Source of the DNA: Minisyncoccota bacterium
GTDB lineage: Bacteria; Patescibacteriota; Minisyncoccia; 2-02-FULL-40-12; GWA2-44-9
DNA: 64,000 nucleotides
Direction of reading: 5' to 3'
NCBI GenBank assembly: GCA_035524755.1
Contig: DATKOD010000003.1
Coordinates: 2,206-66,205 of the forward strand
Below the pieces are notes generated by a model. It saw only the letters and a list, made by a program, of their open reading frames with translations. It searched no databases and was not told the origin of the DNA. The translations under genes and the position numbers were made by a program. Positions 2,411 to 47,147 of the stretch are shown here, one piece after another. The stretch's first letter is position 1; each line of letters starts with the position of its first letter.

Positions 2411-4231
2411 TCAACGCTCCACGAAGTCGACCTGGATACGGGCGGTATCAGCGGGTAAATGGCTCACCCAGAAGGGCCGGAGCGTCAGGGTCGCCTGCTG
2501 GATGTCGTCGCGGCCCCCCACGTACTGCTGGAATGCCGCGGTATCCATGCCTTTGACCGCCGTCGCCAGTCCGGCGGCATCCACCGGGTCATAGCCGTTG
2601 CCGGTCACATCCGCGGTGAACGTGAGCTTCTGCAGGGTATCATCGTACGCGACATTGCTGAGTTTCACGGTCAGTTGGTCTGCCTGAACGTTCAGGCGGT
2701 CCTTGCGCAGGATGGTGTCGGCGATGAGCTTGTCCAGATCCGCCTGACGGAACGCGACGGTTTTGAGCGTCACCGTGGCCGTCACCGATACCGAGGCCGC
2801 CGCGTCATCAGGCTGAGCGTCCGACGTGAAGGTCGGTGTGCTTCCGGGTGCGTCGTCGGCGATGCGCATGCCGCCGGTCTGTGATTTCAGAGCATCGGCG
2901 ATGAGCGCTGCGACATCGGACGTCGCGGCGGTCTTCGCGGCGTCGTAATCCGCTTGGGTCACGACCGCTGACGGACCGTTGGCGCCACCGGACATCGGTG
3001 CCGTCGAGACGCCATAGATCTTGGCCGCACGGTCGGTGTCGCCCTTCTCCACGAATGCGGCGATGGTGAACTTCCCGGCGGCGATGTTGTAATCGGTACC
3101 CGGCTTATCGGCGATGACGCTCACCGTGACACTGCCCGGGACGGCGCTTCCCTTGACGACGGTGGAGCCGGGGACCGTGACCGTGGACAGCGTGCGGAAT
3201 ACCAGCCCGTTCGGTGCGGTGAACCGTGTCGTCGCGATGAGCGTCTGCGGCGTCGAAGAGTATCCGTTGTACACTGTGAGCGTTCCTTTCGCTTTGGACG
3301 CGACATCGCGCGAACCGGTCGCGGCGACGCTGTGCGTAGCGGATTTGGACATCTCCAGGAGCTGCCCCGGAAGGTTTCCGAACGTAGCGTCGACGGAAGC
3401 GATCGAACCGGACACCGAGACGGCGATGTGCTCATCCACGGGCTGGCTGGCAGGGGCGACCGCGATGACCGCGGAGCCTGCGGTCAGGTATACGACGATG
3501 CCCACGATGAGCACCGCGCCGATCAGGAGTGCGATGACGGTCTTTCGCGTCAACCACGCGATAGATGCTCCCGGGAATCGCAGCCGGCGGAGCGGGGATG
3601 ACCGCGGCCGTGGGACGATCGTCCCCTGCTGTGCCGCACGATCGCGCCATACCTTATCGATGTAATCGAAGCTGTCCTCGGTCGGCGATACGGCCGTGGC
3701 CGGTTTTTTGGTCCGGACCATTGCGAGGTCCGCATCCGCTTCCACCTCCTGATTGGTGACCGGTTCTTCTCCCTCGGTCCCTTCCACATGGAATCCCGGA
3801 ACGATATCGCTCTCGGCATCGGCATCATCCGGAGATGTCACCTGCTGCCGTTCATCGGAGGTCAGCGGCACGTCCTCCTCGAACGCATCCTCGCTCGGGT
3901 CCTGGATTTCCGGATCGGACGGCGGTGGATAGGTCGCCGCAGTGACGGCCTTCGGTTTGCGTACCCGCTTGGTCGTTGCGGATACCATGACATTGAACCC
4001 GTGAGCCCGTGCCCGGGCGGCGATGTCCGAGTTCGTGGTCAGGATCGAGATCGTCTTGCCGGCAGATGACGCTTCACCGGCAAAAGCGGCGAAATGGTCG
4101 TCTGAACGGAATATCTTCCCGTTCTTCGGCAGGACGAAAATCACTTCGCCGGCAGGTGCGGACCGGAAAACATCCAGAATATCAGCCAAGGAGTCGTCCT
4201 TCAGGATATTGATTATCTTGATGCCGGCCAT
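2411..4231 (-). CDS. hypothetical membrane-anchored protein (N-terminal ~90-aa cytoplasmic domain, acidic linker, one TM helix, large Ser/Thr/Val-rich extracytoplasmic domain)
   Basis: 606-aa ORF with a single hydrophobic helix (VIALLIGAVLIVGIVVYLTAG). No family recognised. It sits where secY/adk/map usually precede infA. Confidence 0.7.
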   Translation of the reverse strand: MAGIKIINILKDDSLADILDVFRSAPAGEVIFVLPKNGKIFRSDDHFAAFAGEASSAGKTISILTTNSDIAARARAHGFNVMVSATTKRVRKPKAVTAATYPPPSDPEIQDPSEDAFEEDVPLTSDERQQVTSPDDADAESDIVPGFHVEGTEGEEPVTNQEVEADADLAMVRTKKPATAVSPTEDSFDYIDKVWRDRAAQQGTIVPRPRSSPLRRLRFPGASIAWLTRKTVIALLIGAVLIVGIVVYLTAGSAVIAVAPASQPVDEHIAVSVSGSIASVDATFGNLPGQLLEMSKSATHSVAATGSRDVASKAKGTLTVYNGYSSTPQTLIATTRFTAPNGLVFRTLSTVTVPGSTVVKGSAVPGSVTVSVIADKPGTDYNIAAGKFTIAAFVEKGDTDRAAKIYGVSTAPMSGGANGPSAVVTQADYDAAKTAATSDVAALIADALKSQTGGMRIADDAPGSTPTFTSDAQPDDAAASVSVTATVTLKTVAFRQADLDKLIADTILRKDRLNVQADQLTVKLSNVAYDDTLQKLTFTADVTGNGYDPVDAAGLATAVKGMDTAAFQQYVGGRDDIQQATLTLRPFWVSHLPADTARIQVDFVER

Positions 4232-21176: not shown

Positions 21177-22541
21177 TCATGGTCTGACCGCGACAGGCGC
21201 CGATGCCGTGTACTCGTCGCGCAGGTATCGGAACTTATCCTGGACGTAGCCTTTCGTCTCGCTCAGGAGACACTGCCGGTACGTTGGCTTGCGACAGTCC
21301 GTACCACGGGCATCAACCCAGTCGGGCGAGTTCTTCTTGAGCGCGATGCGATAGACCGCGGTCACCCGCTTGGTGCCGGTATTGTATCCGGCGAACTGGA
21401 GCTCATCGATATGGGGATCGCTCATGATGGCCGTCCCGAACGCCTTCACGTAGTCGGCAAGCTGGAGATCCAGGAGCAGGATCGCCGCTTTCATGCTGTT
21501 GAGCGCCTGCCGCCGGCCGGTATTGGTGTCGGTCACGAGGCCTGCGGCCGGATATGCCTTCCGAACCATCGTATATGAACTCGCGATGAACTGCTGCGGA
21601 CCGCATGCGCCCGCCGGACTGCACGTGAACGATGCGAACATGTCGCCGTTGGCGCCGATGGTGGCGTAGACGCGGTTGGTCGTCCATTGCGGGTCCAAGA
21701 TGAACTCGGTCAGGTCCATGTGCTCGATGGGCATGATCTTGTCGATGGGGAACGCCTTCGGATATTTCGCGATGACGTCAGCGATGAGCATGCCGGGCAA
21801 CGCCCGCGAGACGACACCCCGCGCGCGTAGATCATCCGTCGCCTTCGCGATGGTATCCGCCACGTACCGTTGTCCTTCTGCGATCACGTCAGCCACCGCG
21901 ATCGGTTCGCTGTACGGTACGTTGATGAATTCGGTGACCCGCGGCTGTCCCTTCTTCGGTGCATCATTGACGATGGGATATTTCACCCCGACGACGATTG
22001 AATCGGACGGCGAAGCGATGGCGAACTGCGTGTTCCAGTTGTTCCACTCGATGCCGTTGGCACGGCGCACGACGCTCATCGCCCACCCCGCCGGCGCCTG
22101 GAGCACCGCGACCGGTTCATTCTTGATGGTCCACTTCGTGCCGGTGCGTGTCGCGACCGGGACGTTCATCTGCGCCATCCCGTACGTTTTCTTGACGGTG
22201 ATGACCGATGTCGTGCACGTCGTGGTGTTGAGCACCCGCACGGCGATGTCCTTGATGTAGTCCTTGTAGACCTTCAGGACGCCCAGACGCACTTCCACGT
22301 ATGAGTGGAGTTTCTGGTCGTACGACAACGATGCAGACGCCAACTGGACATCAGAAGGGGTCCCGGCGATGACTGAGGCGATGTCGCATGCGGGTTTCGG
22401 CGGCAGCACCGGAGACACATCCTCCGGCGCATAGAACCCGACCCGTACCGATGTCGGATCGGGTGCTTGTGCGTGCACCGATAGGACCCCGAAACCGACC
22501 GCGGCAATGACCGACGTTGTGGTGATCAGCAGTCTACGCAT
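21177..22541 (-). CDS. secreted hypothetical protein (signal peptide, several Cys pairs)
   Basis: Start at MRRLLITTTSVIAAVGFGVLSVHAQA (M18 of the track ORF); this signal peptide is cleavable. About 454 aa with no recognised domain. Confidence 0.7.
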   Translation of the reverse strand: MRRLLITTTSVIAAVGFGVLSVHAQAPDPTSVRVGFYAPEDVSPVLPPKPACDIASVIAGTPSDVQLASASLSYDQKLHSYVEVRLGVLKVYKDYIKDIAVRVLNTTTCTTSVITVKKTYGMAQMNVPVATRTGTKWTIKNEPVAVLQAPAGWAMSVVRRANGIEWNNWNTQFAIASPSDSIVVGVKYPIVNDAPKKGQPRVTEFINVPYSEPIAVADVIAEGQRYVADTIAKATDDLRARGVVSRALPGMLIADVIAKYPKAFPIDKIMPIEHMDLTEFILDPQWTTNRVYATIGANGDMFASFTCSPAGACGPQQFIASSYTMVRKAYPAAGLVTDTNTGRRQALNSMKAAILLLDLQLADYVKAFGTAIMSDPHIDELQFAGYNTGTKRVTAVYRIALKKNSPDWVDARGTDCRKPTYRQCLLSETKGYVQDKFRYLRDEYTASAPVAVRP

Positions 22542-22604: not shown

Positions 22605-23903
22605 TCACAGGTCGCTCTTGATGTTCGCCGCAAGCAGCTGGACGGAATTCGCATAGTTGACGCAGCTGGCGTTCGTGCTCGCAGCATTGCCGCAATAATA
22701 TTTCTTCGATGCCGCGATCTCTCCCGCACGGGTCTGGCTGCTGGCGCCGTCATTCGAAAGCTTCGCTGCGGCCGCGACGAACGCGTCTTCGATGTTCCAG
22801 GGATCGGGCAGCGCATGGCCGGATATCGCGGCGATCTGATCTCGATACCCCATCCACGTTGACGGCAAGAACTGCGCCGCACCCATGGCGCCTCCCCATT
22901 TGGAACCGCATGAGATCGGGGTCTGGAAAGGATCGCGGTTCAATTGCGCGGTGATACTGAGGAAATACGGGAGGTCTCTCGTGGGATTGATGCCGTAGGT
23001 ATAGATCTGGCCGTTCGTGATCCTCCGCGTCTCCCCGCTGGTCGAATCCACGATGTAGCACTTCCCGACGTTTGCCCCGAGCGCACTCTCTTGCTCGAGC
23101 TCCGCGATGAGGAACTCCGGCCGGATACCGGCTCCGATGGCGGCAAGCTGCCCATATTTGATCGCATCCTCTGCCGAGACGCCGTTCTGTTGCAGGTAGT
23201 AGATCTGTTCCTGCAGGCGTTGCAGATTCGTCTTGGTGGTCGCTACCAACTGTTGGTATTTGCTCTCTTGGCCCTGCGTCACCTTCAATAACTGGTTTTT
23301 GTCGGTTTTCGTCGTCGCAAGTTGACGCTGTTGCGCTTCTTGGAGCGCTTGAGCCTGCTCCAGACTCGTCTGTTGGTCCTGGAGCTGGGACTGTTGCTGG
23401 TCCAGTTGATCGCGCAAATCGCTGATGGACTGGATGGCCGTGCTCAGCGAGTCCTGCGTGCGCTGGATATCATGCACGCGGTCGAAGAAGTCCGACAGTG
23501 TGCCGCTCTGGAGCAGGATCATCGAGAGCGGTTGCAGATCGTTCTGCGCCGTTTCACGGAGCGCTGAGGCAAGCGCCTGCTGGTGCACCGAAATCTGCTG
23601 TTCCGCATTCTCGATGGCGGTCTGAGTCTGACCGATTTCAAGTCCGGTCTCATCGATGGACGCCTGGAGAGATTGGATCTGCGTGCTCAATACGCTGATC
23701 TGTGCGTTGAGCTTCGAGATTTCCGTCTGCAACGATTGCTTCTGTGTGCTCGCCTGGGTCAACTGCTCTTGCGCAGCGTCCAGCTGCGCCTGCAACTGCG
23801 TCTGCTTCTGTTGCAGGGCGGCAATCTCGTCCTGAACGGCCGCATGCGCCGTCAACGGAACGACGAGCGCACAAAGAGCGACGATTGCGACCAACCGCCT
23901 CAC
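22605..23903 (-). CDS. coiled-coil protein with C-terminal lytic murein transglycosylase (MltB/Slt35-like) domain
   Basis: A long Q/L-rich coiled coil follows the signal-like segment RRLVAIVALCALVVPLTAHA. The C-terminal region has GAMGAAQFLPSTW, the family-3 LT signature. A GTG start at ~23903 forms a GTGA overlap with the upstream stop; the track ORF extends to 23966. Confidence 0.8.
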   Translation of the reverse strand: MRRLVAIVALCALVVPLTAHAAVQDEIAALQQKQTQLQAQLDAAQEQLTQASTQKQSLQTEISKLNAQISVLSTQIQSLQASIDETGLEIGQTQTAIENAEQQISVHQQALASALRETAQNDLQPLSMILLQSGTLSDFFDRVHDIQRTQDSLSTAIQSISDLRDQLDQQQSQLQDQQTSLEQAQALQEAQQRQLATTKTDKNQLLKVTQGQESKYQQLVATTKTNLQRLQEQIYYLQQNGVSAEDAIKYGQLAAIGAGIRPEFLIAELEQESALGANVGKCYIVDSTSGETRRITNGQIYTYGINPTRDLPYFLSITAQLNRDPFQTPISCGSKWGGAMGAAQFLPSTWMGYRDQIAAISGHALPDPWNIEDAFVAAAAKLSNDGASSQTRAGEIAASKKYYCGNAASTNASCVNYANSVQLLAANIKSDL

Positions 23904-24346
23904 TGGACGATGATCGTACCGGTCTGCGACGCGTTCGATTCGTCCGCGTGGTTCAGGTAGTGGCACGTCTGTGAATCATTGAACGCCAATGAGTATGTCT
24001 CGCCGCGGTACAAGGAGCGGGTGGCGTCAAGTCCCGGGCAGCCGCCGGTGCCGCTGACGGTCATGGGCCAGAAGGCGATATCGGTGTCGTTGCGGAACGT
24101 GATGGCGTCACCGACCCGGATGGTGATGGTGGCCGGGGTCACGCCGGAAGCGGTCAGATGGACGATGTACCGCTGAGGTGTCGGGGTCGGCGTGGGGTAG
24201 TATCCGATGGGTGTGGGCGTCGGGGTCGGCGTCGTGGAATCGCTGGTCGAATCCGACCTCGTCGCCAGATACGTGATACCGACCGCCAGAAGCGCCACTA
24301 CGATGACCGAGATGATGAGTGTTCGTGAGGAGTACATAATCCCCAT
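23900..24346 (-). CDS. membrane-anchored hypothetical protein (TM, PT-rich linker, ~90-aa beta-rich domain, possibly cupredoxin/Ig-like)
   Basis: 148 aa with N-terminal TM LIISVIVVALLAVGITYL and a TPTPTPTP linker. The fold assignment is speculative. Confidence 0.6.
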   Translation of the reverse strand: MGIMYSSRTLIISVIVVALLAVGITYLATRSDSTSDSTTPTPTPTPIGYYPTPTPTPQRYIVHLTASGVTPATITIRVGDAITFRNDTDIAFWPMTVSGTGGCPGLDATRSLYRGETYSLAFNDSQTCHYLNHADESNASQTGTIIVQ

Positions 24347-24355
24347 GCTAACAGA

Positions 24356-24384
24356 TTGGCTGGCGGCTTCCAGAGGTATACAAT
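24356..24384 (+). promoter_or_regulatory. sigma70-like promoter (TTGGCT-17-TACAAT) placed to give a leaderless or near-leaderless mRNA for the pilin-like gene
   Basis: The -10 ends about 7 nt before the ATG at 24391. There is no SD. Confidence 0.4.
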
Positions 24385-24390
24385 GGGGCT

Positions 24391-24891
24391 ATGCACACAC
24401 GTCGGGTGCTCACTATTGGTGCCGTTCTCCTTATGGCAGTGCTTCCGGTCGTCGCGATTGCCGCTGATCAGCCGCTCCAATCAGGTTCTGATTCCCTCGG
24501 CGCAGCAGTAGCCTCGCTCTACCGATACGGCCTGAGCATCGTGGGTCTCGCAGTATTCGTTATGTTTTTGTATGCAGGACTCCTTAAGATGTTTTCGGAG
24601 ACTTTTATCAGCAAATGGGTACCGTCAGGTTGGGAAAAGAACTCTACCGTTGTCATTCAAGATGCGGTCATCGGGCTCATCCTCTTGTTCGCCTCATATC
24701 TCATCCTCAACACGATCAATCCTGATCTGGTGACGCCGCAGAAAGCGTCCCCGACGTCAACGACGACCTCGACCAGTTCTTCGGCGGGAACGGTGGGTCT
24801 TCCCACGAGCAGCAGCGTGCCGACGCCCGTACCGACATTCCAGGGCGGCGGAGGTTCATTCGGCGGCGGCGGTGCCTCAGGAACTTTTTGA
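24391..24891 (+). CDS. VirB2/TrbC-type (T4SS) pilin-like protein
   Basis: 166 aa with signal peptide MHTRRVLTIGAVLLMAVLPVVAIA. The mature part has two hydrophobic helices (LSIVGLAVFVMFLYAGLL; AVIGLILLFASYLILNTI) separated by a short loop, then an S/T-rich tail ending GGGGSFGGGGASGTF. The family call is by architecture only. Confidence 0.55.
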   Translation: MHTRRVLTIGAVLLMAVLPVVAIAADQPLQSGSDSLGAAVASLYRYGLSIVGLAVFVMFLYAGLLKMFSETFISKWVPSGWEKNSTVVIQDAVIGLILLFASYLILNTINPDLVTPQKASPTSTTTSTSSSAGTVGLPTSSSVPTPVPTFQGGGGSFGGGGASGTF

Positions 24892-24892
24892 T

Positions 24893-25090
24893 ATGGCATA
24901 CGTACTCGTCCTCCTTGCAGCACTCGGGATATTCGTTTACAGCACGCCTGCCCGCCAGGCGGTCAAGAATTCATTGGCAGCTATCGCGCAAAGCGCCGAA
25001 GTCAGACAGGCGGAAACCTACCTACGCGACAAAGTCACGGGATTCATCCGGACCGAGCTCCACCACGCGGTCGATGATGCGGTGAAATAG
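24893..25090 (+). CDS. small membrane protein (65 aa), hypothetical
   Basis: MAYVLVLLAALGIFVYSTPARQ... Its ATG sits 1 nt after the pilin-like stop (TGATATG). Confidence 0.4.
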   Translation: MAYVLVLLAALGIFVYSTPARQAVKNSLAAIAQSAEVRQAETYLRDKVTGFIRTELHHAVDDAVK

Positions 25091-25101
25091 TCCCCCATTG
25101 C

Positions 25102-25130
25102 TTGACTTTATGCACGTAATGTGCTATACT
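25102..25130 (+). promoter_or_regulatory. near-consensus sigma70 promoter (TTGACT-17-TATACT)
   Basis: Followed by GGAGG and the ATG at ~25148. Confidence 0.5.
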
Positions 25131-25147
25131 TCACCTTGGAGGCTGAT

Positions 25148-25288
25148 ATGAAGAAGCACACGCGCCTGGTGCTGTTCCTGATCGCACTGACGCTCGTGGT
25201 CACGGGCTCCCTGGGCTCGACCAAGCAGAACGCGTTCGTTCCCGGGGGCGGCCACTTCCGCGGACACGGCGCCAGCTCCAGCTGGTGA
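25148..25288 (+). CDS. small secreted Gly/His-rich peptide (46 aa)
   Basis: MKKHTRLVLFLIALTLVVTGSLGSTKQNAFVPGGGHFRGHGASSSW, with a signal peptide, a GGAGG SD, a strong promoter and a terminator. It is below the ORF-track cutoff. Confidence 0.5.
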   Translation: MKKHTRLVLFLIALTLVVTGSLGSTKQNAFVPGGGHFRGHGASSSW

Positions 25289-25299
25289 TGACACCCGAA

Positions 25300-25327
25300 G
25301 GGAGATCCATGACGGACCTCCCTTTTT
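25300..25327. terminator. intrinsic terminator (GGGAGATCC-atgac-GGACCTCCC-TTTTT), bidirectional (also follows the dsbA-like stop at 25336)
   Basis: 9-bp stem with one mismatch plus a T5 tract. Confidence 0.5.
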
Positions 25328-25335
25328 CATTGCGG

Positions 25336-26097
25336 TCATTTCGCCAGTGCCGCGTCGATGACCTGCTGGAATGCGGCGAACGGCTGTGCACCGACCAGGG
25401 AGACGCCGTTGATGAAGAAACTCGGCGTTCCATCGACTCCCAATGCGGTACCGTCGGCTTGGTCCTTATCGACTTCGCTCGCGTATTTCTGTGAGTCCAG
25501 ACACTGATTGAATTTCGTCATATCCAGACCGATGTTCGAGACCCACGTCTTGATGTCGCTGACACTGAACGATACCGTCCCGCCGCTGGGGTCTTTGGCA
25601 TCCTGCCCCGCGAAGATCGCATCGTGGAACTGCCAGAACTTCCCCTGCTCCGCCGCACAGGCACCTGCCAGCGCGGCAGGGCGTGCAGAGGGATGCAGGC
25701 TGGTCAGCGGGAAATCACGGAAGACGAGGCGGACCTTGCCGGTATCGATATAGGTCTTCTTCAGCAGCGCGAAGGTGTCGTTGTAGAACGATCGGCAGTA
25801 CGGACACTGGAAATCACTGAACTCCACGATGGTCACCTTGGCGTCCGCATTCCCCAGGACCGGATCTTCACCGTCCTCAAGCTTGCTGGTATCGATCGGT
25901 GCGGCGGTTCCGTCCGCCTGCTGGGCAGGAGCAACGGACGGGCCGTGGAACAGCGATGCGGTACCGCCCGAACCGACGAACAGGACACTGGCTGCGATCA
26001 ACAGACCTGCGACGATGATGGCGCCCGGAACGGACATGAACGGTTGCTTCGGCTCCACCGGCTTCGGCTGCTCGCTGACCATCGGTTGTTCATCCAT
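25336..26097 (-). CDS. DsbA-family thiol:disulfide oxidoreductase (membrane-anchored)
   Basis: 253 aa with an N-terminal TM, the thioredoxin motif FSDFQCPYC, and a DsbA-like remainder. Confidence 0.85.
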   Translation of the reverse strand: MDEQPMVSEQPKPVEPKQPFMSVPGAIIVAGLLIAASVLFVGSGGTASLFHGPSVAPAQQADGTAAPIDTSKLEDGEDPVLGNADAKVTIVEFSDFQCPYCRSFYNDTFALLKKTYIDTGKVRLVFRDFPLTSLHPSARPAALAGACAAEQGKFWQFHDAIFAGQDAKDPSGGTVSFSVSDIKTWVSNIGLDMTKFNQCLDSQKYASEVDKDQADGTALGVDGTPSFFINGVSLVGAQPFAAFQQVIDAALAK

Positions 26098-26107
26098 GAA
26101 TGGAAAA

Positions 26108-26494
26108 TTAGGGTGTTACTGACGGCTTCGCTCCCAACGACAATGGGGCGACTTCCACGAGGATGTTCGCCACCGGGTCGTAGAGGATCCCGATCTGCGC
26201 CGTATTGTAGATGAGGACCTTGTCGCCGACTTTCGCATTCTTGAAGAATGGCTGGCCGGCGAGCTTTGACATGTCGGTGACCGTCGCGACCACGGGTGTC
26301 TCGCCGGTCGGCAGTGCGTACAACTTCCCGACGGCGGCCACCAGCCGTGAAACTTCATCGAGCGCCGCCTGTTGTGCATCAACCGGTTTCCGGCCCGACA
26401 CATACACGTACGATGCGGTGCCGACCGCAACGACGATCAGGACACCGGCACCGATGACGACGGGAAGTTTCATGGATGGCTTCCAGGATATCAT
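26108..26494 (-). CDS. membrane-anchored hypothetical protein (128 aa)
   Basis: Starts at MISWKPSMKLPVVIGAGVLIVVAVG; the ATG overlaps the VKOR stop (TGATG). The track ORF 26108..26806 extends 5' antisense into VKOR. Confidence 0.5.
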   Translation of the reverse strand: MISWKPSMKLPVVIGAGVLIVVAVGTASYVYVSGRKPVDAQQAALDEVSRLVAAVGKLYALPTGETPVVATVTDMSKLAGQPFFKNAKVGDKVLIYNTAQIGILYDPVANILVEVAPLSLGAKPSVTP

Positions 26495-26913
26495 CAGTCG
26501 CGTTTCATGACTACGATACCGAGTATCAACAGCGTGGTCGATGTGAGCGCCGAAAGCATGCAGTACTGGCAAAACGCGTGGAGGATGAATGCTTGGACGG
26601 CGACGAAATACAGCGTACCCAGGAAGCCCGCCACCGATAGCCATGCCGCACGGTGCAGGAACCGCCGGTCCCATGAATCGAAGTACATGACCAACAGAAC
26701 GATCATCGCACCGTAGAACAACAAGCCGGTGGCCGAAACCGGTACTGGACCGATGGATGAGAATCCGCTGGCAAGCACCGCCTCGCATCCCTTCAGGATG
26801 GTACACGGAGGAAGTATTCCGCGCACATGCTCGGCGGTCAGGTACGCGGAATCCGCGAACCCGATGAGGGCCGTGATGAACATCCCGATGACGATCGCTT
26901 TACTGATGCGCAT
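26494..26913 (-). CDS. vitamin K epoxide reductase (VKOR) family protein, a DsbB-equivalent
   Basis: 139 aa with 4 TM and the active-site CTILKGC (CxxC) loop, plus conserved Cys pairs. VKOR fills the DsbB role in several bacterial lineages (established knowledge). Confidence 0.8.
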   Translation of the reverse strand: MRISKAIVIGMFITALIGFADSAYLTAEHVRGILPPCTILKGCEAVLASGFSSIGPVPVSATGLLFYGAMIVLLVMYFDSWDRRFLHRAAWLSVAGFLGTLYFVAVQAFILHAFCQYCMLSALTSTTLLILGIVVMKRD

Positions 26914-27652
26914 TGAGCGGTTGCAAAACCTTCGCCTTGAAATCGTCGAAACTGGACGGTTGTGCCATCTGCGAACCGTTCACGAAGAACGTCGGCGTTC
27001 CGTTCACACCAGAAGACACCGCGCTGTCATAATCCGCATTGACCGCGGCGATGACCGGTGCGGAATCGATATCAGCGGTGAATTTCGTCACGTCCAAGCC
27101 GAGGCTTCCCGCGTATGAAATGAATTGCGCACGCGCCGCCGAAGCCGACAGATTCTCCCAGGTGGTTTGGGTATCGAACAGCTTGTCATGCATCTGCCAA
27201 AACTTCCCCTGTAACGACGCGGCCTGCGCCGCCTGGGCCGATTCCTGCGCGTTGGGATGGATATCCCGCAACGGGAAGTAGCGGTACACGAGACGGACCT
27301 TGCCCGCGACCTGCGGATCGGCAAGCAGTTGGTTCACGACCGGGTAATACGCGGCGCATGCCGGGCATTCGAAATCGCTGTACTCCAGAAGCGTGACCGA
27401 TGCACTGGCAGGACCGATACTGATATCGGACGCCGATACCGGCACCGAAAGCGTGCCGTTCGTGGTGGTCGTGGGAACGCTGCCCGCTGCGCGATACATC
27501 AACCAGCCGATGCCGACGAGCACCACCGCAACGATCGCCCACATGATGGAGCTTCGCACGATACGGCGACGCCGGTCTTGCTGCGACTGCATCTGACGCT
27601 CCTCGCGCCGCGCTTGCCGGCGCTCTTCTTTGCTCGATATCCGTCCGTCCAT
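26900..27652 (-). CDS. DsbA-family thiol:disulfide oxidoreductase, second paralog
   Basis: 250 aa with a TM anchor and the motif YSDFECPAC. Confidence 0.85.
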   Translation of the reverse strand: MDGRISSKEERRQARREERQMQSQQDRRRRIVRSSIMWAIVAVVLVGIGWLMYRAAGSVPTTTTNGTLSVPVSASDISIGPASASVTLLEYSDFECPACAAYYPVVNQLLADPQVAGKVRLVYRYFPLRDIHPNAQESAQAAQAASLQGKFWQMHDKLFDTQTTWENLSASAARAQFISYAGSLGLDVTKFTADIDSAPVIAAVNADYDSAVSSGVNGTPTFFVNGSQMAQPSSFDDFKAKVLQPLNAHQ

Positions 27653-29997: not shown

Positions 29998-32232
29998 CTA
30001 GCGGGCGCTGCAGGCGCAGCTGACGGTCAGCGACGCGTCATGCAACCAGGCCGCTTGGACGCCGCATGCCGTGCTGGTGGCGCTGTCGGTGAAGTCGTAC
30101 TCGTAGGTGGTCACGCCCGGGATGGAGCTCTGGTAGGTGGCATCGTCGCTGCCGTAGTAGTTGCTCCACTTGTAGTTGTTGTTGGAGTTGCCGTGGCGAT
30201 GCGGCGTGTCGCATTCGTGGTTGGGGCCGTCCTGCCAGGTTCCGCCGTCGGCCGTGCAGGCGTCTCGCGCATGGCTCGAGCTGTCGTGCATGTAGTACAC
30301 GTACTGCGTCGGTCCCGTCTGCGGGAGCTTGTAGAACGCGTAGAGCGTCTGGCTGTTGAAGCCCGTGAACGTGGCGCTCGCGCCGGGGCCCAGGTTGAAC
30401 GTGCCGTTCGGGATGATGCTGTCCGCGGGGTCGTCCTTGTTCGTGGCCACCACGATGGCGTACGTGACCTGGTCGCTCCGGTTGTTCTTCAGGGTCCAGG
30501 TGTTGACCTTCGGGCAGTCCTGCGGCGGGATCGCGATGCTGTAGGTGTGGTCGTAGCTCTTCGTGCACTGCAGCTCCGACGGGCCATAGCTGACCACCTC
30601 GGTGTAGACGTCCGAGAAGGTGAAGGTCGAGCCGTAGGCCGGGCGGTTCACCACCTTGGGCAACGGATCGGACCACGTGCCGCCCGACGGGCGAACCGTA
30701 CCGCTGGTCACCTTCTCGGTGGTCGCGGTCTTGTCGGTGAGGTCGAGGTCACCACGGAAGTCCGGCGGGGTCGGCGTGTAGTCGGCACAGGTCTTGGTGC
30801 GCGGCGGGATGACCACGGGCGTCGTCACCGGACAGGTCAGCGAACCGCGAACGACCGTCAGAGTCGCGGTGAGGGTCTGCTGGCTGTCGGTCTGAGCGTA
30901 GCCGTGCGTCACGTTGAACGGATTGTTCTCGTTGTCGGACGCTCCGTCGCCGTATGCCAGCGACCCGGTGCCGGGGTTCACCCAGCTGCCATGGAGGCCG
31001 ACGTTGTACGTGCTCGCGATGCTGGCACGCACCGACTTGGCGTGCACCGAGTCCGCCCCCACCGTGTAGGTGCTCAGCTGCGGGTTCACGTCTCCGCATG
31101 TCGGGTCCTTCGCGGGCACCGTCTTGGTGAAGGGCTTGGAGACCGTGCACTTGAGGTTGTCCGGGCCGTAGCTCTTCGTGTAGGTGTCGCTGAAGGAGGC
31201 GTCCGGCTGTCCGAAGTTCGGACGATTGACCGTCGCCGGAAGCGCGGTGGACCACGTGCCGCCCGTCGGAGCGACCGTGCCGGCGTCGAACGTGTAGCTC
31301 GACGGTCCGGGGGTCACGCCCAGGTCACCCGTGATGGTCGGCGGGGTGTAGTCCTTGCAGGTGGGGTTCGTGCCGACCGTGACGGTGATGGACGGGTCGC
31401 ACTCCACACCGCCGCCGGTGAGCTTCAGCTTGATGGTGAACTTCTGCTGCGGCTCGGCGGGGTACGTGTGGCTCACGGGGACACCGTTGGTCGCCGATGA
31501 GGTCGTGTTGTCGCCCCAGTCGAGGACGCCATTGATCTTGGTGTCGCCGACCTTGTGGTTGAACTTCGGCGTGACCGTGATCGTGGTGCCGTCCTGCGTG
31601 TACGTGAGCGATCCGTTGATGGTCTCGCAGGTCACGCAGGGCTCGGGGTAGTTGAACACCACCCCGAACGGCCACCTCACCTCGTCGGTCGCATTCTTGA
31701 AGAGGCCGTCGTGCTGGTCCATGCCGCAGGAGTTGACGCTCACGTCCCACTGCGTCGTGAGCTTGACGCCCACGGTGGACGCCTTGAACGTCAGGTGGTC
31801 GTTCTGGTCGGCCCCGTTGCCGGAGCCGGCCGAACCGCAGCTGTTCTCGGGGGCGTGGAACGCGCCTGAGCGCAGCCATCCGTCCGAGGCGCTGATGATG
31901 CCCCAGGTGACGGTGTACTTCTTCGACGCGGTCACGACCTGGCAGCGGTTGTCGAGCAGATCGAGGTTCGTATCGAGCACGCAGAACGTCAGGGTCTTGT
32001 CGCGAGAGCTGACCGTCTCCTTGCCCTCGCAGATGCCGGAGCCGGTGACCGTCTGGCCCGTGCCGGATGCCGGAGGCGCCGGGACGGACGCGTTGGAACC
32101 GCTCGTGGCGGGGGCCTCGGAGACGACACTCGGGGAGGTGGACGTGTCGCCGCCCTTGTTGCAGGCGACGGGAACGAGGCAGACCGCCGTCACGACGGCG
32201 GCGATGCCCAGGAACGTCATCAATCGACGCAT
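29998..32232 (-). CDS. large Cys-rich lipoprotein with two internal ~100-aa repeats, hypothetical
   Basis: 744 aa. Signal peptide plus lipobox (LVPVAC). Two paralogous modules (TCKDYTPPTITGDLG... and TCADYTPTPPDFRGDLD...). More than 30 Cys. The segment has extreme GC with open frames on all strands. Confidence 0.75.
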   Translation of the reverse strand: MRRLMTFLGIAAVVTAVCLVPVACNKGGDTSTSPSVVSEAPATSGSNASVPAPPASGTGQTVTGSGICEGKETVSSRDKTLTFCVLDTNLDLLDNRCQVVTASKKYTVTWGIISASDGWLRSGAFHAPENSCGSAGSGNGADQNDHLTFKASTVGVKLTTQWDVSVNSCGMDQHDGLFKNATDEVRWPFGVVFNYPEPCVTCETINGSLTYTQDGTTITVTPKFNHKVGDTKINGVLDWGDNTTSSATNGVPVSHTYPAEPQQKFTIKLKLTGGGVECDPSITVTVGTNPTCKDYTPPTITGDLGVTPGPSSYTFDAGTVAPTGGTWSTALPATVNRPNFGQPDASFSDTYTKSYGPDNLKCTVSKPFTKTVPAKDPTCGDVNPQLSTYTVGADSVHAKSVRASIASTYNVGLHGSWVNPGTGSLAYGDGASDNENNPFNVTHGYAQTDSQQTLTATLTVVRGSLTCPVTTPVVIPPRTKTCADYTPTPPDFRGDLDLTDKTATTEKVTSGTVRPSGGTWSDPLPKVVNRPAYGSTFTFSDVYTEVVSYGPSELQCTKSYDHTYSIAIPPQDCPKVNTWTLKNNRSDQVTYAIVVATNKDDPADSIIPNGTFNLGPGASATFTGFNSQTLYAFYKLPQTGPTQYVYYMHDSSSHARDACTADGGTWQDGPNHECDTPHRHGNSNNNYKWSNYYGSDDATYQSSIPGVTTYEYDFTDSATSTACGVQAAWLHDASLTVSCACSAR

Positions 32233-42719: not shown

Positions 42720-45149
42720 TTAGGTGGTACGTTCGAAGCGCTGCCGGATTTCTGATTCCACTTCTTCCCGCGGACGACCGAATTTCGCATGGCTGGATTC
42801 GATGATGGCATCGCGAACGGCCGGATCGCCTTTCGCCAGTCCGATCTCCGCGAGACCGCGCATGCTCGTAGGCCGCGCAACCTGACTGTTCACCAGCATG
42901 GATACATACGCATGGAAATTATCGATGTTGGAAACATCGTACGGAGAGAACACCGGTTCGAACTTCGTCTTCAGGAGCGGCATCTCGGCATCCTCCGGAC
43001 TGACACGGTACACCACCATGGTGCCGACGTTGCCGAAGACCGAATCGCGGATGGCGTCGTCAAGCTGCTTGATGAACTGATGCGCCATGATGAGACATAG
43101 GCGATACTTCCGGGCTTCCGCGAGGATGACCGAAATGGAATCCGTCGTGAAGTTCTGGAATTCATCCATATACAGATAGTGATCGGGCAGGTCAGCGCGT
43201 TTCGTATCGCGCGCCAATGCCGCACGGCGTAGTTTGCCGGTGATGACCATGCCCAACAGGTTCGCGTTCATATCACCGATCTTCCCTTTCGACAGGTTAC
43301 AGATAAGTATCTTCCGGTTCTCGATGACATCCCTGAAATCGATGACGCTCGTCTGTTGGTTCACGATGGGCCGCAGAAAATCATTGGACGTGAACGTATC
43401 GATCTTGCTGGTGACATATCCGGCGAAATTCGCCAGCGACTGGTCGCCGGTCATCTTCGTGGCTTCCAATTCCCAGAACTGCTTCACGACCGTGTTGGAC
43501 TCGTGCGCCAATAGGTCATTGCGGAATGCCTCGTCGACGAACACCCGTGACATGTCGGCCAGCGTCGGTACCCGCCGCTCGTAGTTATCGAGCAACAGGT
43601 ATGTCGCATTCTTGAAATACCGCTCGAACATCGGTCCGCCGGTCTCCTTGAGGTCGTACAGCTTCGACATGATCTCGAATAATTCGTCGATGATGAGCGT
43701 TTTATCCTGCGGATTGGACGGGTCGAACTCGAGCATGTTCAATCCCAGCGGGAACGACGTATCGCCGGGGTTGAAATAGATGACGTCGTCGATCCGTTCC
43801 TTCGGGACGTTCGCTAACACCCACTCCGCGAACGAGCCGTGCGGATCCAGTACCGTAATGCCGTCCCCCGACTCCAAATCCTGGGGTATCATCGACTGCA
43901 TCGTGACCGTTTTTCCGGTTCCGGTCTGTCCGATGATGTACATATGACGCCGACGGTCTTCGCGCGCGATGCGAAGCAGCGTCGACTGGCCCCGGTATTC
44001 GTTCATGCCGAACGCGATGCCATGCTCGGGAAGACCCGGTGGCGGCTCGGCCGTCTTGAAATTCACGAACTTGACCTTCGGCATGACCGCCATGCCGGTG
44101 GGAAAGTGGTACACGCTGGTAAGTTCCTCCGCCGACAGCGTGACCGTCTGAGCGTCATCGAACAGGCGAAAGGCGAATTCGAATTCCAACCGCTCCAACG
44201 CCTTGCCGGACAGTTTCTTCACGTTGAATCCGTTCCGGTCAGCCGTCGTATATTGCGAGAACGCGCCGGCGACATCGTTCATGATGGCATCCGCACGTTC
44301 CGGTGAGGACGATGAGGCGAGGATGCGAATGTTGCAGTCGAACAGCGGGCGTGATGCCTTGGACTGCAACGCGGTGATGAGTTTCTGTTCGAATTCGGTG
44401 GCGACCTTCGGCGGTTCTTTGAGCGCGGCGTCCGAGTCTCTCTTTTCATCCTTCTTCGGCGGATGCTGGGCGAGTTTGAGCGCTTTATGGAAATCATTGC
44501 CCGCCTGCATCTGACGTGCGGTATCGGACGCGAGTTTCCGGATCCCGGCATGCGACGACGGCCGGACCGCGATCTGGATGGCGACACCTTCGCCCTCCTT
44601 CTCGATCCTGCCCATCGCGCTCACCAGCGGACCGAGCGGATCGCTGGGCAGCTCGGTATAGGTCAGTACCGGCAGGATGGGATCCTCACGCTGGGTCAGG
44701 TAGGCGCCCGCCGAGCCGCCCTGCGGATTGAAAATGTTGTAATCCGGGCTCCGTTGAACGGTGGCGGTCGGAAACACGCCGACCATCTGCTTCTCGAACT
44801 GATCAGCGAACTTCGACGGCACCGCGGCGTAGAAATGGATCTGCTCGCCGATATGGTGCACCGCCATTTCCAGCACCAGGTACGGATCGCCGAACAGGAA
44901 CTTGTTCCACCCTTTGATCTTCAGGTTTGCCACCGACGCATACAACTGCTCCATGACCGCGATGAGTTTGCGTTCGTCCTTCTCCCCTCCCTCGGCGGCG
45001 AACCGCGGCAGAAGGAACAGCAGCAGCTGCATGTCCAGAGAACGCGACAACGACGTACGCGAACGGAGACCGTTGACGACGATCAACGCGGCGACGGCCA
45101 GAATGACCGCGACCAACGCCAAGAGTACAAGCGTGATGACGGGCGACAT
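42720..45149 (-). CDS. membrane-anchored AAA-like ATPase of the VirB4/TraC/HerA (DUF87) superfamily
   Basis: 809 aa with an N-terminal TM. Walker A (IIGQTGTGKT) at ~residue 405, Walker B (LYMDEFQNF), and a HerA/VirB4-like AEARKYRLCLIMAHQFIKQL motif. It has a ~380-aa non-ATPase N-terminal region. Confidence 0.7.
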   Translation of the reverse strand: MSPVITLVLLALVAVILAVAALIVVNGLRSRTSLSRSLDMQLLLFLLPRFAAEGGEKDERKLIAVMEQLYASVANLKIKGWNKFLFGDPYLVLEMAVHHIGEQIHFYAAVPSKFADQFEKQMVGVFPTATVQRSPDYNIFNPQGGSAGAYLTQREDPILPVLTYTELPSDPLGPLVSAMGRIEKEGEGVAIQIAVRPSSHAGIRKLASDTARQMQAGNDFHKALKLAQHPPKKDEKRDSDAALKEPPKVATEFEQKLITALQSKASRPLFDCNIRILASSSSPERADAIMNDVAGAFSQYTTADRNGFNVKKLSGKALERLEFEFAFRLFDDAQTVTLSAEELTSVYHFPTGMAVMPKVKFVNFKTAEPPPGLPEHGIAFGMNEYRGQSTLLRIAREDRRRHMYIIGQTGTGKTVTMQSMIPQDLESGDGITVLDPHGSFAEWVLANVPKERIDDVIYFNPGDTSFPLGLNMLEFDPSNPQDKTLIIDELFEIMSKLYDLKETGGPMFERYFKNATYLLLDNYERRVPTLADMSRVFVDEAFRNDLLAHESNTVVKQFWELEATKMTGDQSLANFAGYVTSKIDTFTSNDFLRPIVNQQTSVIDFRDVIENRKILICNLSKGKIGDMNANLLGMVITGKLRRAALARDTKRADLPDHYLYMDEFQNFTTDSISVILAEARKYRLCLIMAHQFIKQLDDAIRDSVFGNVGTMVVYRVSPEDAEMPLLKTKFEPVFSPYDVSNIDNFHAYVSMLVNSQVARPTSMRGLAEIGLAKGDPAVRDAIIESSHAKFGRPREEVESEIRQRFERTT

Positions 45150-45550
45150 CAGGGAGCGGGCTCAACCTTCCGGCGTTCCAGCAGTTGCGAGTGGAATTCA
45201 TCGGCGAGCACGTCGTGCAGTGCATCGATGAGCGCGGGATTGCCGGAAGCGACAGCCTGGTCGATGGCGGCCTGCAGGCTCTGCGTGAACACCACGTTCA
45301 CCAGTTGCTGCACCGGGCCGGCCAACGCCGGGTCCTGCCAGCTCGGCGTGCCTGCCACGGGTTGCGATGCCGCTGGCGCCGGTTGGTAGTTCGGCACTGA
45401 CTGTTGGATGCGTTCGCCGACCGCCTCATGCACTTCTGCCCGTTCATACGGCGTCGATGCGTCAGCGCCCAGCTCCGCGCGTTTCTCCTGGAGCCTGCGT
45501 TCCAGGTCTGCGATCTCCGTCTCGATCGGACCGGTGGTGTTCTCAGCCAT
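45149..45550 (-). CDS. hypothetical protein (~133 aa)
   Basis: Its stop overlaps the ATPase start (ATGA). No recognised domain. Confidence 0.45.
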   Translation of the reverse strand: MAENTTGPIETEIADLERRLQEKRAELGADASTPYERAEVHEAVGERIQQSVPNYQPAPAASQPVAGTPSWQDPALAGPVQQLVNVVFTQSLQAAIDQAVASGNPALIDALHDVLADEFHSQLLERRKVEPAP

Positions 45551-45581
45551 GCACATCCATTGTAGCACACCCCGTGCTACA

Positions 45582-47144: not shown

Positions 47145-47147
47145 CCC

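Follow-up and report, generated by a model that had tools for sequence, protein, structure and literature searches.

VirB2-like pilins are already described from Patescibacteria, where they are known from a six-gene essential array in Ca. Southlakia epibionticum ML1 and from a 'Sec secreted array' in TM7x (PMC12102498, PMC12857230). VirB2-like pilins and VirB4 occur in 1,948 assemblies, with the pilin near virB4 in 1,135, and unlinked pilin genes are common in T4SS-bearing genomes (PMC12102498). The T4SS is essential in the one species tested, and making pili is ascribed to it only as a potential (PMC11665869, PMC12857230).

The window, that is the whole 64-kb stretch of DNA analysed here, carries on its plus strand a pilin-like ORF of 166 aa (24391..24891, stop TGA 24889-24891). 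Its signal peptide and topology are predictions from hydropathy and rules. Hydrophobic segments cover residues 6-24, ~46-66 and ~86-109, corresponding to a predicted signal peptide (aa 1-24, nt 24391-24462), helix 1 and helix 2. The rule-based reading of the N-terminus gives MHTRR, a 19-residue hydrophobic core, a proline at -6 and a standard AXA site, AIA|AD; the signal peptide, which had been called long, is at 24 aa of ordinary length. The 20-25-residue loop between the second and third hydrophobic segments (aa 67-85) contains K67, K75 and K82. A conserved block, YLILNTINPDLV (aa 103-114, nt 24697-24732), closes helix 2. Within this block I105-L106-N107 and I109 are invariant, while Y103, N110, P111, L113 and V114 are at least 90% conserved. 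The remaining tail (aa 115-166) is disordered and S/T/P/G-rich, ending in GGGGSFGGGGASGTF, and residues 110-166 contain T11, S11, G11 and P7 per 57. The ORF call and hydropathy thus bear out the two hydrophobic helices and Ser/Thr/Gly tail of the original prediction. In the AF2 model helices span 34-67 and 85-109; block-mean pLDDT reaches 85, and the overall mean is 60. With two hydrophobic helices in a hairpin after an export signal and a conserved block closing helix 2, the protein has the layout of the PF18895 type.

The ORF is a real gene under purifying selection, present in single copy on a Paceibacteria-type chromosome. Its dN/dS against orthologues is 0.10-0.17, and the three small ORFs of the locus (166, 65 and 46 aa) together span 0.10-0.35 with saturated synonymous sites (pS 0.6-0.74). 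A search over all six frames of the 64-kb window returned this single match and no paralogues, which rules out a pilin array in the window.

Membership of the VirB2/TrbC-type pilin family, as claimed in the original prediction, is borne out by transitive and profile evidence only. The Pfam HMMs that were to decide it, PF18895 (T4SS_pilin; gathering score 26.6 bits) and PF04956 (TrbC/VirB2; 27.9 bits), do not match the 166-aa protein even at E<=10, and nothing relevant came up when the 166-, 65- and 46-aa proteins were scanned directly against Pfam and NCBIfam. Orthologues score 16.5-27.1 bits against PF18895, P0028 alone exceeding the cut-off. The best TrbC score among them, that of P0026, is 24.9 bits over profile positions 8-98 of 98. 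Among 30 family members, 27 match PF18895 and 11 match TrbC, the latter below threshold. In phmmer searches the 166-aa protein matches PF18895-annotated proteins at E 1e-14 to 1e-6. An independent profile, built from 17 Pfam-flagged PF18895 proteins only, finds the 166-aa ORF at 110 bits (E 3e-33) as its sole match among 1159 window ORFs, and the conserved block aligns with the LntinPdLv consensus of this profile. The A1 profile finds P0056 (89 bits to PF18895), P0057, P0086, P0098, P0126 and others at E 1e-27 to 1e-52. The family is large, with 25,176 relatives, each a cluster representative, in the representative library. Foldseek with the AF2 model found no PDB match at E<=0.001, the best being unrelated helical proteins at E>2; the fold search is uninformative, since a two-helix hairpin is too simple. 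A PDB sequence-profile search likewise returned 0 matches. Judged by sequence, the 166-aa protein belongs, as a divergent member, to the VirB2-like T4SS_pilin superfamily of Patescibacteria (PF18895, related to TrbC/VirB2); the family is a known one, since VirB2-like pilins of Patescibacteria are already published (PMC12102498).

Compared with those published pilins, the protein shares sequence homology, a predicted signal peptide followed by a two-helix hairpin, and the phylum, and many of its relatives lie just downstream of virB4. It differs in falling below the Pfam threshold, in being encoded by a single gene rather than an array and in its longer inter-helix loop; its closest subclade carries a Gly-rich C-terminal tail. 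The clade as a whole differs in never being VirB4-linked, in its SLT/cupredoxin-like/Dsb locus and in its 65-aa partner. The propilin layout of VirB2 of Agrobacterium, TrbC of RP4 and TraA of F is also the one predicted for the window protein, with a leader, two hydrophobic helices, a basic loop and both ends outside; the full-length TrbC matches of its orthologues, weak as they are (24.9 bits versus a 27.9-bit cut-off), and the adjacency to a lytic transglycosylase, which recalls virB1-virB2, extend the likeness. The leaders of VirB2 and TraA measure ~47-51 aa, whereas that of the window protein has 24 aa. The protein further departs from these pilins in its lack of a direct HMM match and in its 52-aa disordered tail. 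Moreover, in contrast to these diderm systems, the window belongs to a monoderm-type host and has no VirB3, B4, B5 or B6 near the gene.

In 37 of 79 species-level relatives the pilin-like gene is found 1-3.5 kb downstream of a gene for a VirB4 ATPase, which links the family to T4SSs, in agreement with PMC12102498. Six of these VirB4 ORFs were checked by Pfam and match P-loop_TraG and AAA_10, with CagE_TrbE_VirB in three. The core motifs of the 166-aa protein are the same as in the VirB4-linked members. The window's pilin clade itself never adjoins VirB4. A distance tree sets it apart from all 35 VirB4-linked sequences, and no VirB4 or VirB6 occurs within ~10 kb of the ten SLT-linked species loci or of the orthologous loci L001-L012. 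As originally noted, neither gene is adjacent in the window either: the VirB4 profile found nothing across the 64 kb (best E 0.19, a coupling-protein homologue), where this homologue is also the only match to T4SS Pfam families, with no VirB4 and no VirB6.

The homologue in question is the 809-aa ATPase on the minus strand at 42720..45149, which had been put forward as a T4SS-like candidate. It does carry coupling-protein Pfam domains (TrwB_AAD_bind 43.3 bits, cut-off 20.5; T4SS-DNA_transf 26.5 bits, cut-off 20.1); TraG-D_C, at 19.7 bits, stays under its 22-bit cut-off, and the NCBIfam equivalogs are all far under theirs. However, it is of VirD4/TraG type rather than VirB4, is unlinked to any T4SS and sits among housekeeping neighbours (GtrA, DNA pol III gamma/tau and two PMT-type glycosyltransferases at 45408-48932), and it was not retained as a T4SS marker. 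VirD4-type coupling proteins are almost universal and rarely T4SS-linked in Patescibacteria (PMC12102498), and the ATPase therefore says little about a T4SS here.

Instead of virB4, the clade has a locus of its own, in which two SLT-like genes and a cupredoxin-like gene diverge from the pilin gene and its 65-aa partner, followed by DsbA-VKOR-DsbA. The first gene of the divergent operon (minus strand, 23900..24337) encodes a ~145-aa protein that has a membrane anchor, a Thr/Pro linker and a domain of cupredoxin-like type, called from a weak amicyanin match (E 0.007); it adjoins the pilin gene in 7 of the 79 species loci and in L001-L008. Its stop is overlapped by 4 nt by the start of the gene for a 432-aa protein (minus strand, 22605..23903) that combines an N-terminal anchor and a long coiled coil with a lytic transglycosylase domain of SLT_2/MltB type (Pfam SLT_2 29.1 bits, cut-off 24.3). 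This gene, which is also a gene call in L004, is kept beside the pilin clade. What recalls the VirB1-type and monoderm T4SS wall hydrolases (TraG of pIP501, PrgK, TcpG) is the lytic transglycosylase domain beside a pilin-like gene; what differs is that this domain is an SLT_2/MltB one behind a long N-terminal coiled coil and that Pfam finds no CHAP or amidase domain in the protein. Such a build is just as typical of PcsB/EnvC-type hydrolases that act in division. Further along the operon, a 454-aa exported protein (minus strand, 21177..22541), kept in 10 of 79 loci, has no match in a Pfam scan; its orthologues in L006, L009 and L010 give weak or faint SLT (PF01464) matches, and it is therefore probably a second wall-lytic enzyme. 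On the other side, the conserved downstream flank encodes DsbA, a 121-aa protein, VKOR and DsbA (minus strand, 25336..27592). The Dsb genes were identified by Pfam Thioredoxin_4/DSBA and the VKOR from the L004 gene table, and they are kept in all orthologous loci. The locus is part of a stable chromosomal core and no prophage.

One nucleotide (T) separates the pilin stop from the ATG at 24893 of a 65-aa protein (plus strand, 24893..25090), exactly as the original prediction had read this tiny TM protein, and translational coupling to the pilin gene is likely given this spacing. The 65-aa protein begins with a TM helix from residue 1, followed by TPAR; its C-terminal part is charged and helical and ends in ELHxAVDxxVK. 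An identical protein bears the NCBI locus tag VMU12_00550 (Candidatus Paceibacterota). Twenty-five homologues, none with a Pfam domain, were found on contigs with pilin homologues, and the gene is always directly 3' of the pilin gene (dN/dS 0.14-0.32). This single-pass protein is a clade-specific partner tightly coupled to the pilin gene. An identity as VirB3/PrgI finds no support, there being no Pfam or NCBIfam match. The only recurrent weak match in the 23-member family is CcmD (10 of 23, best E 0.0023), which probably results from transmembrane composition.

Upstream of the pilin gene, a promoter scan finds the sigma-70-type sequence TTGGCT-17-TACAAT (plus strand, 24356..24384, 9/12 matches), separated from the ATG at 24391 by the six bases GGGGCT. 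Taken alone this promoter is not significant, since the scan gives 2 sites in 1.7 kb versus 0.7 +/- 0.9 in shuffles. No usable SD lies 3-12 nt upstream of the ATG; a GAGG lies 14 nt upstream, and a GGGG 2 nt upstream was rejected as too close and as not kept in L001 or L007. With 6 nt between the -10 box and the ATG, a leaderless pilin mRNA is predicted, and comparison supports this putative start. The ~45-bp intergenic region is almost identical in L001 and L007 despite saturated synonymous sites (pS ~0.7), the more distant orthologues L012 and L011 have TATACT exactly 6 nt 5' of the ATG, and a -10 box stands 6 nt from the ATG in five of six orthologous loci. The earlier reading of a leaderless-type promoter without SD is supported, with the spacing kept in L001, L007, L012 and L011. 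In fact, 17 of 47 genes have TANNNT 6-9 nt ahead of the start codon, versus a 2% background (p 1.5e-16), so that the predicted leaderless layout is the genome's normal mode and not special to the pilin gene. Genes led by an SD coexist with leaderless ones. A -10 box 6-9 nt 5' of the start codon without SD is the feature in common with the leaderless genes known from Actinobacteria, Deinococcus and archaea; here it is predicted to be a genome-wide feature of a Paceibacteria-type genome. Our literature search found no paper joining leaderless translation with Patescibacteria. The divergent operon has a candidate -10 box of its own, TAGCAT (minus strand, 24345..24350), read from the sequence 7 nt before the ATG at 24337. 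This ATG is Met4 of a 148-aa ORF whose Met1 ATG is not conserved in L001, where the orthologue has 146 aa. The plus- and minus-strand boxes would thus form back-to-back leaderless promoters, with predicted starts ~54 bp apart, in a ~44-bp intergenic region common to the pilin gene and the cupredoxin-like/lytic-transglycosylase-like operon.

We consider the best explanation, with a probability of about 0.45, to be that the 166-aa protein is a VirB2-type pilin in a filament or conduit whose T4SS core is encoded elsewhere. Transcription would begin at or within one base of the pilin AUG and yield a leaderless mRNA; the N-terminus would be exported by Sec and cleaved by leader peptidase after Ala24. 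The mature pilin of ~142 aa would then reside in the cytoplasmic membrane, its two ends on the outside and its Lys-bearing loop on the inside, as in VirB2/TraA propilins, and on the cytoplasmic face it may be bound by the 65-aa partner (N-out, C-in). Pilin pooled in the membrane could next be assembled into a VirB2-type surface filament or wall-spanning conduit, with the co-regulated lytic transglycosylases taking the VirB1 role of opening peptidoglycan and the ATPase core (VirB4/VirB6) supplied from elsewhere in the genome. The VirB1-like pairing is suggested by the SLT_2/SLT-like genes conserved beside the clade, by the near-invariant intergenic region at pS 0.7 and by P0057, a natural fusion of PF18895 modules with an SLT domain. 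Filament or pilus formation is, on the protein's features, a possible role only. Several findings speak against the pilin reading: the PF18895/PF04956 models miss the protein, and its orthologue clade lies mostly below the gathering score; VirB4 and VirB6 are absent from the 64 kb and from the SLT-linked loci, and the clade stands apart from the VirB4-linked sequences; no fold or PDB match was obtained; and the closest orthologues show an in-frame deletion of the signal-peptide core, the hydrophobic core being absent in five of the eight closest homologues. That coiled-coil hydrolases are typical of cell division too, as in the PcsB/EnvC type, also counts against it. Furthermore, the PF18895-type two-helix module is often fused to large enzymes or adhesin-type domains or repeated 2-4 times, which is not known of classical pilins. 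In PMC12857230 the Patescibacterial T4SS is described as no more than potentially able to form pili; in favour of the pilin reading, the same paper has VirB2-like pilin arrays as essential in Ca. Southlakia epibionticum.

Many of the same observations fit an envelope protein independent of any T4SS, to which we give appreciable weight, if clearly less than an even chance. Here the two-helix module would be a membrane anchor or an oligomerising hairpin, with no pilus and no VirB4; together with the 65-aa partner it would organise or regulate the wall-lytic enzymes and show its S/T/P/G tail in the wall zone. A conserved locus with a clade-specific partner and VirB4 in 0 of 10 SLT-linked species loci, a clade separate from the VirB4-linked sequences, a single copy without an array in 64 kb, the near-invariant bidirectional promoter region and the tolerated loss of the signal peptide all agree with such a protein, as do the at least six distant loci in which DsbA genes abut long pilin-like ORFs and the use of the module as an N- or C-terminal anchor in SLT, GH5, TIG, discoidin and Ig-like proteins. 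However, the entire region is syntenic in relatives (tRNA_Me_trans, HAD, VTT and others), and the pilin-SLT adjacency may therefore reflect vertical inheritance and not function. The family as a whole is tied to VirB4 (37/79 loci), the core motifs match those of VirB4-linked members, and pilin genes apart from virB4 are no rarity where a T4SS is present (PMC12102498). That the clade is a functionally separate VirB2-like offshoot, a T4SS-independent envelope module of Paceibacteria/Yanofskybacteria, we regard as somewhat unlikely. Such a module would combine the hairpin, the 65-aa partner, two lytic transglycosylases, the cupredoxin-like protein and Dsb under one compact bidirectional leaderless promoter and, with no VirB4 involved, would form or sustain a structure that lies at the surface or spans the wall. 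On this wider view the PF18895 module may serve Patescibacteria in general for membrane anchoring and display, and not as a pilin.

Being small and two-helical and encoded next to two wall-lytic enzymes under a common control region, the membrane protein could also be read as a holin-like regulator gating the export or activity of the adjacent lytic transglycosylases, but this is very improbable. The protein is homologous to the pilin-like family and to no holin family; it has a predicted cleavable signal peptide and an uncharged S/T/G tail, whereas holins typically have a charged C-terminus; both lytic-transglycosylase-like proteins carry N-terminal export/anchor segments of their own; and the locus is chromosomal core, not prophage. 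Equally slight is the chance of an annotation artefact, in which the ORF is no gene or starts at Met15, as in the 152-aa ENA call (P0001), and consequently has neither signal peptide nor leaderless start. The gene caller's choice of Met15 and the short N-termini of the closest orthologues, without a hydrophobic core, favour this reading; the low dN/dS at saturated synonymous sites contradicts it. Moreover, the ATG-CAC (Met-His) and the promoter just upstream are kept in L001 and L007 with no in-frame start further upstream, complete signal peptides starting at the same Met-His occur in P0004 and in relatives further removed, and Met15 has neither an SD nor a promoter of its own.

By itself the window gene adds little, a conserved two-helix membrane protein in a sub-branch, beside cell-wall-cutting enzymes. 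What is new is the split of the family into VirB4-linked genes (37/79 species loci) and a clade apart from them, which has its own partner protein and is fixed in a locus for wall remodelling and disulfide bonds. Should this orphan clade need VirB4, pilins are supplied from sites spread over the chromosome; should it not, the 'pilin' fold does another job in the envelope as well. The clade is missed by Pfam-based surveys, and the NCBI name is 'hypothetical protein'. We note that leaderless genes in these genomes can be mis-started by gene callers, the 152-aa ENA call being an example.

Downstream of the 65-aa partner, a strong promoter, TTGACT-17-(TG)TATACT (plus strand, 25102..25130; 10/12 matches, TG extension), kept in L001 and L007, precedes a gene for a 46-aa exported peptide (plus strand, 25148..25288), which is led by an SD, GGAGG (25138-25142). 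The peptide (dN/dS 0.35) is limited to the closest clade, namely the window, L001-L004 and L007, and at its C-terminus it has FVPGGGHFRGHGASSSW, similar to the tail of the pilin. The Gly-rich C-terminal sequence GGGGASG[ST][FW] may be like the tails of TPM-domain proteins; the one TPM-like neighbour examined, in L005, is without such a tail. The plus-strand unit likely ends at a terminator, a hairpin with a T-run (plus strand, 25298..25327) facing the convergent DsbA gene. The 48-nt stretch 25289-25336 has a minimum free energy of -15.9 kcal/mol (z -2.15), and a perfect hairpin occupies the same place in L007.

The pilin-like ORF (166 aa, 24391-24891, forward strand, TGA stop at 24889-24891) is separated by a single T from the ATG at 24893 of the ORF encoding its 65-aa membrane-protein partner (24893-25090, forward strand), and the whole feature, from the -35 hexamer through the stop of this second ORF, spans 24356-25090. 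This arrangement is as originally predicted. Hydropathy analysis reveals three hydrophobic segments in the pilin-like protein (residues 6-24, ~46-66 and ~86-109). The first is preceded by MHTRR and ends in AIA|AD, a standard AXA signal-peptidase site with proline at -6; the predicted signal peptide agrees with the original proposal, except that it is of ordinary (24 aa) rather than long extent. Between the last two segments runs a 20-25-residue loop with K67, K75 and K82, and the tail (residues 110-166; 11 Thr, 11 Ser, 11 Gly and 7 Pro) ends in GGGGSFGGGGASGTF. No cysteine is present. An AlphaFold2 model with the family alignment as input places helices at residues 3-24, 34-67 and 85-109 and leaves the tail disordered (mean pLDDT 60; core blocks up to 85). 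The original observation is confirmed, and its interpretation is supported with the corrections described here and below.

The promoter scan recovers TTGGCT-17-TACAAT at 24356-24384 (forward strand), 6 nt from the ATG where ~7 nt had been estimated, with no Shine-Dalgarno (SD) sequence at a usable distance. The orthologues in loci L011 and L012, otherwise without intergenic similarity to the window, carry TATACT exactly 6 nt before the ATG, and a TANNNT box ends 6-9 nt upstream of the first start codon in 17 of 47 window genes, against a background of 2% (p 1.5e-16). The predicted leaderless start is therefore well supported comparatively, and would be the organism's routine mode rather than a peculiarity of this gene; leaderless-type promoters seem to be the genome's standard arrangement. 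Other leaderless-type examples lie at 7539, 13864, 32379, 34587 and 36833, the box often being TATACT or TACAAT. A clear SD is seen in few window genes, and SD-led genes coexist with leaderless-type ones (e.g., a 46-aa gene with GGAGG).

The ~44-bp intergenic region at 24347-24390 is a control region common to the pilin-like gene and the divergent wall-lytic operon. It differs at only 2 positions from locus L001 and 5 from L007, and is thus much more constrained than synonymous sites and more conserved than two hexamers require. Together with a small inverted repeat inside it (CTGG-N6-CCAG), this excess suggests that a regulator site may overlap back-to-back promoters. For the minus-strand operon the likely start is Met4 (24337), which has TAGCAT 7 nt ahead of it, and we infer from the sequence two divergent units with leaderless promoters and predicted starts ~54 bp apart.

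No pilin family in Pfam or NCBIfam matches the window's protein, even at E ≤ 10, including the TrbC/VirB2 and T4SS_pilin HMMs to which the original prediction had pointed. The pilin-family attribution nevertheless holds by other routes. Among the 30 relatives that a phmmer search of 5.8 billion proteins returned, those with E values of 1e-14 to 1e-6 are annotated with PF18895 (T4SS_pilin) and a single one with PF04956 (TrbC/VirB2). Scanned singly, 27 of 30 family members match PF18895 and 11 of 30 match TrbC, although most orthologues score below the PF18895 gathering score of 26.6 bits. The family profile collects 25,176 cluster representatives at E ≤ 1e-3, and seven of ten long matches scanned pass the PF18895 gathering score (up to 89 bits), an eighth falling just under it at 26.5 bits. 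A profile built from 17 Pfam-flagged proteins only retrieves the pilin-like ORF at 110 bits (E 3e-33) as the sole match among 1159 window ORFs. The protein thus belongs to a known superfamily as a divergent member below the Pfam threshold; these sequence comparisons make it a new member of the Patescibacterial VirB2-like pilins, and that Pfam misses its clade is one useful addition. Searches of solved structures by sequence and by fold gave no match, which is unsurprising for a helical hairpin. VirB2-like pilins are already described from 1,948 Patescibacteria assemblies, lying near virB4 in 1,135 and forming arrays of 2-11 genes (PMC12102498), and a pilin array is essential in Ca. Southlakia epibionticum (PMC12857230). 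We note that the two-helix module is also found at one end or the other (N- or C-terminal) of proteins of 400-1270 aa that bear SLT, GH5 cellulase, TIG, F5/8 type C (discoidin) or Big_13 (Ig-like) domains, and in 2-4 repeats within one protein (P0056, P0057, P0089, P0113, P0126). Such fusion and repetition are unusual for a true pilin.

The family occurs in two genomic contexts. A one-genome-per-species scan yielded 261 relatives; we retained 79 loci, almost all bearing record titles of Patescibacteria-type MAGs, and scanned their six-frame ORFs with profiles of the window's proteins. The full module is found in 7 of the 79, the only ones with the partner, and an SLT pair lies beside the pilin-like gene in 10. 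Many other relatives are preceded at 1-3.5 kb, in the same orientation, by an ORF of ~590 aa; the six scanned with Pfam are VirB4 ATPases (P-loop_TraG 81-103 bits; AAA_10 in 6/6, CagE_TrbE_VirB in 3/6). A VirB4 profile built from these six matches 37 of the 79 loci, none of the ten SLT-linked ones and nothing in the window. A neighbour-joining tree built from 86 core columns, crude and without support values, places the window and the nine SLT-linked sequences within a 14-member clade that includes none of the 35 VirB4-linked sequences. The family is thus genuinely T4SS-associated, while the window gene, on this sequence-based grouping, belongs to a separate, T4SS-unlinked clade. This split between VirB4-linked and envelope loci and the conserved partner are further useful additions.

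The window itself is ordinary chromosome (aminoacyl-tRNA synthetases, RNase Y, MreBC, PBP2, Obg, DNA pol III and others) and lacks a local T4SS. The pilin-like gene is single-copy in these 64 kb, and the lack of an adjoining VirB4, as originally noted, extends to the entire window. The candidate ATPase at 42720-45149 (809 aa) is indeed T4SS-like, matching VirD4/TrwB-type coupling proteins, but only 148 of 5,713 such homologues in 2,918 Patescibacteria genomes lie near virB4 (PMC12102498), so it provides no evidence for a local system. In every orthologous contig examined (L001-L012), the divergent set comprises a ~450-aa exported protein (weak SLT matches in orthologues), a 432-aa coiled-coil protein with an SLT_2 lytic transglycosylase domain and, adjoining the pilin-like gene, a ~145-aa membrane-anchored cupredoxin-like protein; on the other side the order is pilin-like gene, partner, DsbA, (121 aa), VKOR and DsbA. 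The partner is coupled to the pilin-like gene: its family (25 members, without Pfam domain) shares its contigs with the pilin homologues, always lying 0-9 nt downstream of them or overlapping, and Pfam and family-member scans found no VirB3/PrgI similarity. Apart from the window's DsbA-VKOR-DsbA flank, DsbA/pilin-like pairing is recurrent: at least six distant Patescibacteria loci have a long pilin-like ORF with a DsbA-like gene immediately upstream of it in the same orientation (L034:8706-11605, L039:2494-4860, L069:8811-11329, L077:8873-11104, L083:8975-11101, L091:8793-11125).

The pilin-like ORF begins with a conserved ATG-CAC (Met-His) and has no upstream in-frame start codon. The ENA call for the identical gene (P0001; L004:10001-10459, contig k141_369533) starts at Met15, giving 152 aa and dropping the signal peptide; it is probably wrong, and gene callers seem to be misled by leaderless starts in this lineage. 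The titles of several of these MAG records read 'uncultured Candidatus Saccharibacteria', whereas the closest relatives carry the labels Paceibacterota or Yanofskybacteria. In five of the eight closest homologues the signal-peptide core is deleted in frame (MH.LLA.AAD...), while P0004 and more distant relatives keep it in full. Alignment of window 24391-24462 with L001:10001-10036 and L007:4992-5020 places the loss at ~14 codons, the hydrophobic core being gone. The closest orthologues lacking the core still keep the Met-His start and promoter, which implies that export of the N-terminal tail is not strictly signal-peptide-dependent, or that the topology differs.

Our preferred reading, to which we give a tentative probability of roughly 0.45, is that the gene would yield a leaderless transcript whose product would be exported by Sec, cleaved after Ala24 and stored in the membrane as a hairpin whose two ends lie outside and whose Lys-bearing loop lies inside, the same topology as VirB2 and TraA. 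It would then assemble into a structure of the VirB2 type, either on the surface or spanning the wall, with the neighbouring lytic transglycosylases in the role of VirB1 and the ATPase core encoded elsewhere in the genome. A link between pilin and hydrolase is supported by P0057, a natural fusion of PF18895 modules with an SLT domain. The main rival, plausible though on the doubtful side, is a T4SS-independent anchor or scaffold. The separation of clade and locus from VirB4-linked members, the dedicated partner, the frequent use of the module to anchor GH5, TIG, discoidin or Ig-like domains or in 2-4 tandem repeats, the direct juxtaposition of DsbA genes and long pilin-like ORFs at distant loci and the fact that loss of the signal peptide is tolerated all argue for it. 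However, synteny in these genomes extends over the entire region, and adjacency may consequently be inherited rather than functional. A holin-like control protein is very improbable. We regard an annotation artefact as equally remote: against L001 and L007 orthologues, the pilin-like, 65-aa and 46-aa ORFs show dN/dS of 0.10-0.35 with saturated synonymous sites (pS 0.44-0.74), and all three are therefore genes.

The 46-aa mini-gene (25102-25327) is self-contained, comprising a strong promoter (TTGACT-17-(TG)TATACT), the SD GGAGG, the ORF and a hairpin terminator. Its peptide has a signal-like N-terminus followed by ...FVPGGGHFRGHGASSSW, and its C-terminus resembles the pilin-like tail (F.GGGGSFGGGGASGTF). 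The gene is kept in L001-L004 and L007 (dN/dS 0.35) and absent from more distant orthologous loci. Two tandem PMT-family (dolichyl-phosphate-mannose-type) glycosyltransferase genes at 45408-48932 adjoin the coupling-protein-like ATPase and a GtrA-like gene; the Ser/Thr-rich linkers of both the pilin-like and the cupredoxin-like protein are possible targets for O-glycosylation by this pair. Three large minus-strand ORFs of 744 aa (29998-32232), 925 aa (61207-63984) and 606 aa (2411-4231) have no match in Pfam/NCBIfam scans except a weak GlxA barrel on the last. They probably encode surface proteins, the 744-aa product being Ser/Thr/Gly-rich with a signal-like, Cys-containing N-terminus.
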